A DNA stretch of 7,332 nt from a virus (IMGVR_UViG_2695420564_000011); one strand, 5' to 3'. Positions 5,118 to 6,437 are shown, numbered from the stretch's first letter. A program made the numbers and translations. The notes: generated by a model from the sequence alone, not told the origin.

Positions 5118-5236
5118 ATGCAGACAATCATCTATCAGATAACCCCCAGCAAATGGTGTACGGAGAGAGTCCTTATTGCATCAACAGGGCTAAAGCCCGG
5201 CACCATCGAGCGGGCCAGAAGAAAGTCATGGATGCA
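5118..5236 (+). CDS. N-terminal fragment (39 codons) of an excisionase/AlpA-like DNA-binding protein, truncated at the junction at 5237
   Basis: ATG at 5118 with GAGG RBS (5109-5112). Sequence MQTIIYQITPSKWCTERVLIASTGLKPGTIERARRKSWM resembles the W...T..ARR pattern of phage Xis-like winged-helix proteins. The reading frame then runs into antisense groEL sequence, which is not meaningful. Confidence 0.35.
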
Positions 5237-5237
5237 N

Positions 5238-6399
5238 GTTCTGGTCTTCGTTGTGACCACGCAGGTCAGCCAGTTTAGACGCTACGCGAATCAGCGCAAC
5301 ACCACCACCAGCAACCACGCCTTCTTCTACCGCAGCACGGGTCGCGTGCAGGGCGTCTTCAACGCGTGCTTTTTTCTCTTTCATTTCAACTTCGGTAGCA
5401 GCACCTACTTTGATAACTGCAACGCCGCCTGCCAGTTTCGCTACGCGCTCCTGCAGTTTTTCACGGTCGTAGTCAGAAGTTGCTTCTTCAATCTGCTGAC
5501 GGATCTGAGCAACACGGCCCTGGATTGCAGCTTCTTCACCCACGCCATCGATAATGGTGGTGGTGTCTTTGTTGATCACAACACGTTTAGCCTGACCCAG
5601 GTCTTCCAGAGTTGCTTTTTCCAGCTCCATACCGATCTCTTCAGAGATTACAGTACCGCCAGTCAGGGTTGCGATATCCTGCAGCATAGCTTTACGACGA
5701 TCGCCGAAGCCCGGCGCTTTAACCGCAGCCACTTTCACGATGCCGCGCATGGTGTTAACAACCAGAGTTGCCAGCGCTTCGCCTTCAACATCTTCAGCGA
5801 TGATCAGCAGCGGTTTGCCTGCTTTTGCAACGGCTTCCAGAACCGGCAGCATTTCGCGGATGTTGGAGATTTTCTTGTCAGCCAGCAGGATGAACGGGCT
5901 TTCCAGTTCAACAGCGCCAGTTTCCGGCTTGTTGATGAAGTAAGGAGACAGGTAGCCGCGGTCAAACTGCATACCTTCAACCACGTCCAGTTCGTCTTGC
6001 AGACCGGTACCGTCTTCAACGGTGATAACACCTTCTTTACCGACTTTGTCCATCGCTTCGGCGATCAGTTTACCTACGGTTTCGTCGGAGTTAGCGGAGA
6101 TAGTACCAACCTGAGCAATCGCTTTAGAGTCAGAGCACGGTACAGACAGCGCTTTCAGTTCTTCAACTGCAGCGGAAACAGCTTTGTCGATACCACGTTT
6201 CAGGTCCATCGGGTTCATGCCCGCAGCAACAGCTTTCAGACCTTCAGTGATGATAGCCTGAGCCAGTACGGTTGCAGTGGTAGTACCGTCGCCCGCAGCG
6301 TCGTTCGCTTTAGAGGCAACTTCTTTTACCATCTGCGCCCCCATGTTTTCGAACTTGTCTTCCAGTTCGATTTCACGAGCAACAGAAACACCATCTTTG
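5238..6399 (-). pseudogene. groL: Internal fragment of chaperonin GroEL (about residues 31-370; lacks N- and C-termini), most likely an assembly chimera
   Basis: Minus-strand translation [50 protein letters not shown] ... [23 protein letters not shown] is near-identical to enterobacterial GroEL. The fragment is flanked by ambiguous bases at 5237 and 6400-6407. Confidence 0.85.
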
Positions 6400-6407
6400 N
6401 NGNNNNN

Positions 6408-6437
6408 ATAGCCGGTACCGGAAATGGTAATTTTCAT
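6408..6437 (-). pseudogene. ugd: First 10 codons of ugd (UDP-glucose 6-dehydrogenase; MKITISGTGY), joined through an N-block to the groEL fragment
   Basis: Reverse complement of 6408-6437 is ATGAAAATTACCATTTCCGGTACCGGCTAT, matching the Ugd N-terminus MKITISGTGYVGLSNG as I recall it. Expected position immediately downstream of gnd. Confidence 0.6.

Follow-up and report, generated by a model that had tools for sequence, protein, structure and literature searches.

A groEL fragment joined to a truncated prophage and to the start of ugd is almost certainly the product of N-marked false joins in a draft assembly

The window analysed here is the whole 7,332-nucleotide stretch of the viral sequence IMGVR_UViG_2695420564_000011. 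It comprises three segments: a prophage piece on the plus strand, an internal fragment of groEL on the minus strand, and a piece of the gnd-ugd region, likewise on the minus strand. Its features are as follows, with genes that lie within the prophage piece marked as such:

1-5236, plus strand: prophage piece, 99.9% identical to the native prophage
1-648, prophage piece: cI-like S24 repressor gene
about 700-770, prophage piece: operator and promoter region
about 780-1350, prophage piece: non-coding structured leader
801-976, plus strand: conserved structured RNA core of about 176 nt at the beginning of the early-left operon, 3' of the repressor gene and operators and 5' of yfdP
1351-1713, prophage piece: yfdP
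1779-2603, prophage piece: yfdQ
2731-3267, prophage piece: yfdR, followed by further early genes
4041-4631, prophage piece: DUF551 gene
4719-4961, prophage piece: DUF4222 gene
5118-5236, prophage piece: first ~40 of the 84 codons of xis, cut mid-gene
5235-6399, minus strand: internal groEL (groL) fragment, covering nt 150-1314 of the gene's 1647 (about codons 50-438) with no gap
5237: joint 1, between phage and groEL, a single N
6400-6407: joint 2, between groEL and ugd, reading NNGNNNNN
6408-6437, minus strand: start of ugd, 10 codons (MKITISGTGY), a 100% match to E. coli SM107
6438-7332, minus strand: gnd-ugd spacer and 3' part of gnd (gnd stop at 6679), placed by BLAST

The native context of the prophage piece is well represented elsewhere. 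The part from 775 to 5236 is 99.5% identical to prophages integrated at mlrA in O26-type E. coli, and the matches of E. coli genomes to the phage piece all stop at 5236, inside xis. The exact cI-like repressor of the window is also encoded on a 263-kb ENA contig (ERZ27259780 k141_171064), which is free of N and carries the same phage, 99.89% identical along 5428 bp. On that contig the phage continues natively in both directions, with a cro-like gene to the left and, to the right, complete xis (84 aa) and int (428 aa) genes followed by mlrA and yehW. Directly 3' of the repressor gene, at about 704-750 of the window, half-sites of the TTGCA-N-GCAA type (ttgcatatctcgcaac / acttgcataatgcgcaac) are repeated; judged by their sequence and position, these are likely to be the operators of the early-left promoter.

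The leader that separates the repressor gene from yfdP is about 580 nt long, has no credible open reading frame and is predicted to fold very stably (z = -4.3 for 780-1340 and z = -5.9 for 1130-1340). Copies of its RNA core were located in phage P1 (21021-21203 of L142), at 1499-1675 of L013, at 338-502 of L019, and in the loci L021-L140, and the invariant 19-mer GGTAGCCGGAATGTGCAAG of the core occurs in at least 120 IMG/VR contigs. An alignment of 25 diverse copies, termed A3, supports a structure of four helices and a pseudoknot, in which a CACC loop pairs with GGUG (AACC/GGUU in the window). Pairing is retained in 92.8% of the cells of A3, versus 30-48% when the 3' partners are slid, and both sides change in 11 of the 26 pairs. 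On four of five whole-structure measures none of 500 shuffles reached the observed value, and on the fifth, which counts further standard pair types, 11 of 500 did so. The structure of the core is thus supported by covariation. P1, Uetakevirus and lambdoid prophages score 137-164 bits with a covariance model built from A3; HK022 and SfII give no hit.

The core is frequently accompanied by tRNA genes: of 120 viral loci, 41 have a tRNA on the same strand no more than 134 nt away. In 16 of these 120 loci, from P1-like phages, a tRNA-Met/Ile2-type gene ends 12-14 nt upstream of the core, as in the ban operon of P1, and in 25, belonging to Uetakevirus-like phages, a tRNA-Arg gene starts 68-134 nt downstream. 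Rfam 15 gave no relevant match, either for the whole window at gathering thresholds or for 600-1400 at E<=1, ARAGORN found no tRNA or tmRNA, and we found no paper that contains the core sequence; the element therefore appears to have been unannotated before. Candidate roles for it are a cis-acting leader of the early operon, for example in antitermination, or a stable RNA processed together with tRNAs. Two known elements were considered and set aside: 1) the put antiterminator of HK022, since the two short motif matches in HK022 fall inside coding sequence and the covariance model has no hit in that phage; and 2) the Pas sRNAs, which are located in late-gene regions and are unrelated. Parts of the leader also recur as separate modules in unrelated phages, and the remainder of it, at ~1047-1350, is made up of such modules. 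The module at window ~1040-1162 is found in PPompW-type phages, and that at ~1165-1350, in which a 25-bp stem is predicted (1214-1238 with 1278-1302), is found in mEp460_4F5, Kati, SfII and others.

The groEL piece includes neither end of its gene, about 50 N-terminal and about 110 C-terminal codons being absent. It is 99.6% identical to groEL of E. coli SCPM-O-B-9504, 98.4% to that of the E. albertii type strain NBRC 107761 and 96.9% to that of K-12. On the minus strand an open reading frame of 403 codons (5226-6437) begins with MKITISGTGY from ugd, passes through three X residues contributed by the run of N, and continues in frame into GroEL. An earlier note on this DNA, made from the sequence alone, had described a 1.16-kb internal groEL piece lying antisense to the prophage operon and fused in frame after the first 10 ugd codons, with N at both junctions and the operon truncated mid-gene. 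The alignments and the translation bear out this description in each of these respects.

Positions 6408-7332, which hold the 3' half of gnd, the spacer and the first 30 nt of ugd, are 100% identical to E. coli SM107, in which ugd is complete (1167 nt). SM107 aside, the gnd-ugd piece reaches 99.9% identity in 23CRST032 and no more than 95.7% in any other complete E. coli genome.

Megablast against 5,426 complete E. coli genomes placed the three segments at distinct loci. In none of these genomes does a single place account for at least 80% of the window, or for at least 80% of 5150-7332 taken alone. The two junction patterns had no match among the JGI metagenome contigs, and the phage/groEL pattern had none in IMG/VR. 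Related phages with a groEL fragment beside a truncated xis were likewise absent from the E. coli genomes, from the phage searches and from IMG/VR. The absence of the junctions from these collections is a direct observation.

An exact look-up of the 403-aa chimeric protein in a cluster collection gave no entry, and an exact look-up of the open reading frame led to a single contig, CCBU01000031.1 (37,855 bp) of the NCBI assembly GCA_000940615.1. The window is the reverse complement of 9106-16437 in a 21.2-kb stretch of this contig (L004). We mapped the stretch by local blastn against native loci from K-12 and other genomes, and obtained the following succession of pieces, in the coordinates of the stretch:

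1-60: rlmN piece
60-3962: fdhF-mdtP-mdtO piece
3971-4205: 236 bp from inside fryC
4210-9012: queG-nnr-tsaE-amiB, then mutL from its 5' end for ~100 nt
9011-10030: gnd-ugd piece, 100% identical to a native locus (L002, 3520-2501)
10039-11203: groEL piece
11202-16629: prophage piece
16635-18904: 3' end of fhuA, fhuC and 5' end of fhuD
18911-18939: ~30 nt with no assigned locus
18940-21212: 5' end of rne, yceQ, rluC and yceF

The mosaic structure is thus directly visible: at least 10 unlinked chromosomal pieces lie within 21 kb, and the three pieces of the window and seven more of the contig map to separate loci in E. coli genomes. In K-12 the loci represented on the contig lie at about 2.64, 4.30, 4.39, 4.37 and 1.14 Mb, that is, megabases apart. 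With lengths of 30 nt to 5.4 kb the pieces are short, and the loci and strands from which they derive are random. Each piece boundary breaks the collinearity of the contig with its relatives, and core genes on it are truncated. At least nine false joints occur in the 21 kb, of which at least seven lie outside the window (rlmN/fdhF, mdtO/fryC, fryC/queG, mutL/gnd, phage/fhuA, fhuD/~30 nt and ~30 nt/rne). The gnd piece extends only 95 nt past the end of the window before it meets the 5' end of mutL at one of these, and the far end of the phage piece is joined to the unlinked fhuA fragment through another, marked by N. Were the contig taken as real, truncated rne, groEL, mutL, gnd, fhuA, fhuD, mdtO and rlmN would all reside on it; rne and groEL are essential genes.

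The positions of the ambiguous bases, read directly from the sequence, follow the same boundaries. Non-ACGT characters occur in the window only at 5237, 6400, 6401 and 6403-6407, position 6402 being a called G. The 21.2-kb stretch as a whole contains six N clusters (3963-69, 4206-09, 10031-38, 11201, 16630-32 and 18905-10), and all six sit in the gaps of a few bases between successive pieces; the phage piece is delimited exactly by its two N marks. The first 1.4 kb of the contig (L144, 1-1400) contains two more clusters, at 49-56 and 402-403.

The content of the clusters proved to be as informative as their position. At joint 1 the native phage sequence has G and the native groEL sequence C at 5237. 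Over 5235-5238 the phage reads CAGG, groEL CACG and the window CANG, with the two natives agreeing on CA at 5235-5236 and on G at 5238. At joint 2, on the plus strand of 6400-6407, native groEL is GTGATGGT and native ugd is AGGCCCAC. The sole column in which these two agree is 6402 (G), and this is the sole called base in NNGNNNNN; the earlier note had supposed as much, and the native sequences prove it right. Each joint of the window has one native sequence on its left side and the other on its right. This switch, together with the columns of agreement and difference, makes the joints look like the consensus of two unrelated sequences laid over one another.

The pattern could be scored at four joints of the stretch: mdtO/fryC (NNNGGNN), fryC/queG (NNNN), ugd/groEL (NNNNNCNN) and groEL/phage (N). 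All 17 N in these clusters fall in columns where the two native continuations differ, and all three bases called inside the clusters fall where they agree. The rule that N denotes difference and a base agreement therefore holds in 20 of 20 columns, the native references for mdtO and fryC being E. coli sequences that share only 86-90% identity with the contig. By our own arithmetic the chance of such a pattern is about 0.75^17 x 0.25^3, or roughly 1e-4. The scoring omitted phage/fhuA and fhuD/next piece, where the best E. coli natives (93.8% identical) diverge or carry an indel at the joint. The rlmN/fdhF and mutL/gnd joints have no N; there the pieces overlap by 1-2 nt, in which the native sequences agree. 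The two-sequence pattern is in this sense observed rather than assumed. By inspection, no shared restriction site, adapter remnant or other motif was seen at the joints.

A similar style of mosaic was seen in a second assembly, GCA_000936005.1, which probably comes from the same pipeline or submitter as GCA_000940615.1. Its contig CDRK01000964.1 (L147, 1-4111) consists of an unassigned piece (1-169), an opgE fragment (170-381), the string NN.N.NNN (384-391), prophage sequence (392-3906) and a dmsA fragment (3907-4111), the backbone pieces being 90-93% identical to E. coli. The prophage is that of the window, cut at different positions, and it is joined to opgE through the N-bearing string and to dmsA directly. 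That one phage is broken at different places in two assemblies, with joints of like style, is a sign of the assembly procedure at work rather than of biology.

The provenance of the isolate can be narrowed to some extent. The backbone pieces of the source contig are 86-94% identical to E. coli. The groEL allele has a Gln-to-His codon variant, and among the GTDB species representatives the 30-mer across this variant occurs only in E. albertii NBRC 107761. Given the divergent backbone and an E. albertii-type groEL variant at 98.4% identity, the isolate is probably Escherichia albertii or a close relative. The 99.6% identical groEL is found in SCPM-O-B-9504 and SCPM-O-B-7615, both of them complete genomes that bear the label E. 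coli, and the other E. coli genomes listed are mostly about 97.7% identical to the piece; these two strains may carry an introgressed allele. The gnd-ugd region and phages are of the kinds exchanged between E. albertii and E. coli. The complete identity of the gnd-ugd piece to SM107, as against the 86-94% of the backbone, would fit an exchange, among E. albertii-like and E. coli strains, of the gnd region that flanks the O-antigen genes. The phage is 99.5-99.9% identical to E. coli prophages. Contamination of an E. albertii-like backbone by an E. coli-like phage and gnd pieces was considered and judged possible but unnecessary, since the same phage sits at mlrA in k141_171064 beside a flank of ~94% identity (by our estimate, the integrase and chromosomal flank beside the phage are together about 94% identical to E. 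coli).

Taken as a whole, the feature in the window is not a real one, and its three segments are not contiguous in any organism. We regard it as close to certain that the linkage of groEL, ugd and prophage is a non-biological end-to-end join, with N placed where the true loci conflict. The earlier note had read the arrangement as a chimeric assembly with the N as an overlap consensus, and the mosaic contig, the agreement of all scored columns and the absence of the junctions elsewhere uphold that reading. The pieces would have been joined end to end during the building of the draft assembly GCA_000940615.1. At each false joint the ends of two pieces would have been overlaid by 1-8 bases, or reads of both true loci would have piled up on the same columns. 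The consensus caller would then have written N, or an ambiguity code later converted to N, where the two disagreed, and a base where they agreed by chance. The in-frame ugd-groEL reading frame would be a one-in-three accident of the join. The joins may have arisen from chimeric reads, through a permissive scaffolder or merger, or by merging done by hand; a search for literature on CCBU01 or GCA_000940615 found no paper.

A variant of this explanation, which we hold as a tentative possibility, places the joins in vitro, as blunt-end ligation concatemers, template switching, amplification chimeras or chimeric clones, with the assembler merely following chimeric reads. The outcome would still be an artefact, and the difference from the explanation by end-to-end joining in assembly lies solely in where the error arose. 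The sharpness of the joints, which have 0-8 ambiguous bases and no long N gaps, fits read-level chimeras or the direct merging of ends better than paired-end gaps, and to that extent favours junctions already present in the reads over paired-end scaffolding; so do the shortness of the pieces and their origin from random loci and strands. That the joints have neither a restriction site nor an adapter remnant nor any other motif in common argues against an in vitro origin. In addition, the N pattern arises only if sequence from both native loci, as reads or as contig ends, lies over the same columns, and a purely computational merge yields this too.

A genuine rearrangement, in which illegitimate recombination placed a duplicated internal groEL fragment next to a truncated prophage on one side and ugd on the other and so gave a real fusion gene, is in our estimation very improbable. 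It could draw on the 403-codon frame and on the 2-3 nt of microhomology at joint 1 (CA?G), short microhomologies being also seen at real illegitimate-recombination junctions. However, it would have to account for at least seven further joints of the same kind on the contig between unlinked loci, several of which cut essential or core genes, and for a phage that the sibling assembly cuts elsewhere. The joints of the window display no mobile-element ends or target duplications, and neither junction recurs in the 5,426 E. coli genomes or the JGI contigs, nor the phage/groEL junction in IMG/VR. The N clusters encode both native continuations, and the run at joint 2 holds a trace of ugd codons that would be missing from a real fusion. 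A genuine fusion requires an unambiguous junction sequence, whereas the N found here match the native sequences of the deleted side. We give equally little credence to the broader proposition that all the joints are real in an E. albertii chromosome, with a groEL fragment fused to the start of ugd, a decapitated prophage and a massively rearranged region in which the N are low-quality calls.

Capture of host DNA by aberrant excision or integration of the prophage, as in specialised transduction, is the least credible reading of all and scarcely to be entertained: host DNA does abut the integration-module end of the prophage, and aberrant excision takes DNA next to the attachment site, but the neighbour of this phage is mlrA and not groEL or ugd, the phage is broken within xis and lacks int and att, what would have been captured is a fragment from the interior of a gene, with a third unlinked locus beyond it, and the other phage end also runs through an N-marked joint into unlinked fhuA. 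The mosaic contig, the ghost of ugd in the N run, the mlrA neighbourhood and the sibling assembly thus contradict both the genuine fusion and the prophage capture.

With the joins attributed to the making of the assembly, neither a ugd-groEL fusion nor a linkage of prophage and chaperonin exists, and the arrangement is without biological importance. Its practical value is that of a data-quality flag: GCA_000940615.1, and apparently GCA_000936005.1 too, hold dense N-marked false joins, and calls of gene order, pseudogenes, gene fusions or prophage boundaries from either assembly are not to be trusted. Chimeric reading frames like that of the 403-aa protein can contaminate protein databases. The occurrence of N only where the native sequences differ offers a simple signature, which needs no reads, for spotting such joins elsewhere.

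Comparison with known systems places the locus among draft-assembly misjoins, with which it shares unlinked segments joined without gaps, ambiguous bases at the joints, many joints per contig, and repetition in a sibling assembly. It differs from them in its unusually high density, a false joint falling about every 2 kb and the pieces being as small as about 30-240 nt, and in that the overlaps are of only 1-8 nt without real similarity. Real groEL paralogues, such as those of mycobacteria and rhizobia, have in common with it a second groEL-like sequence outside the groESL operon; these, however, are full-length and have their own start, stop and expression signals, whereas the piece described here is an internal fragment bordered by N. 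Specialised transduction by lambdoid prophages likewise sets host sequence beside the int/xis end, but in the window the adjoining DNA does not come from the mlrA attachment neighbourhood, xis is cut, and int and att are absent.
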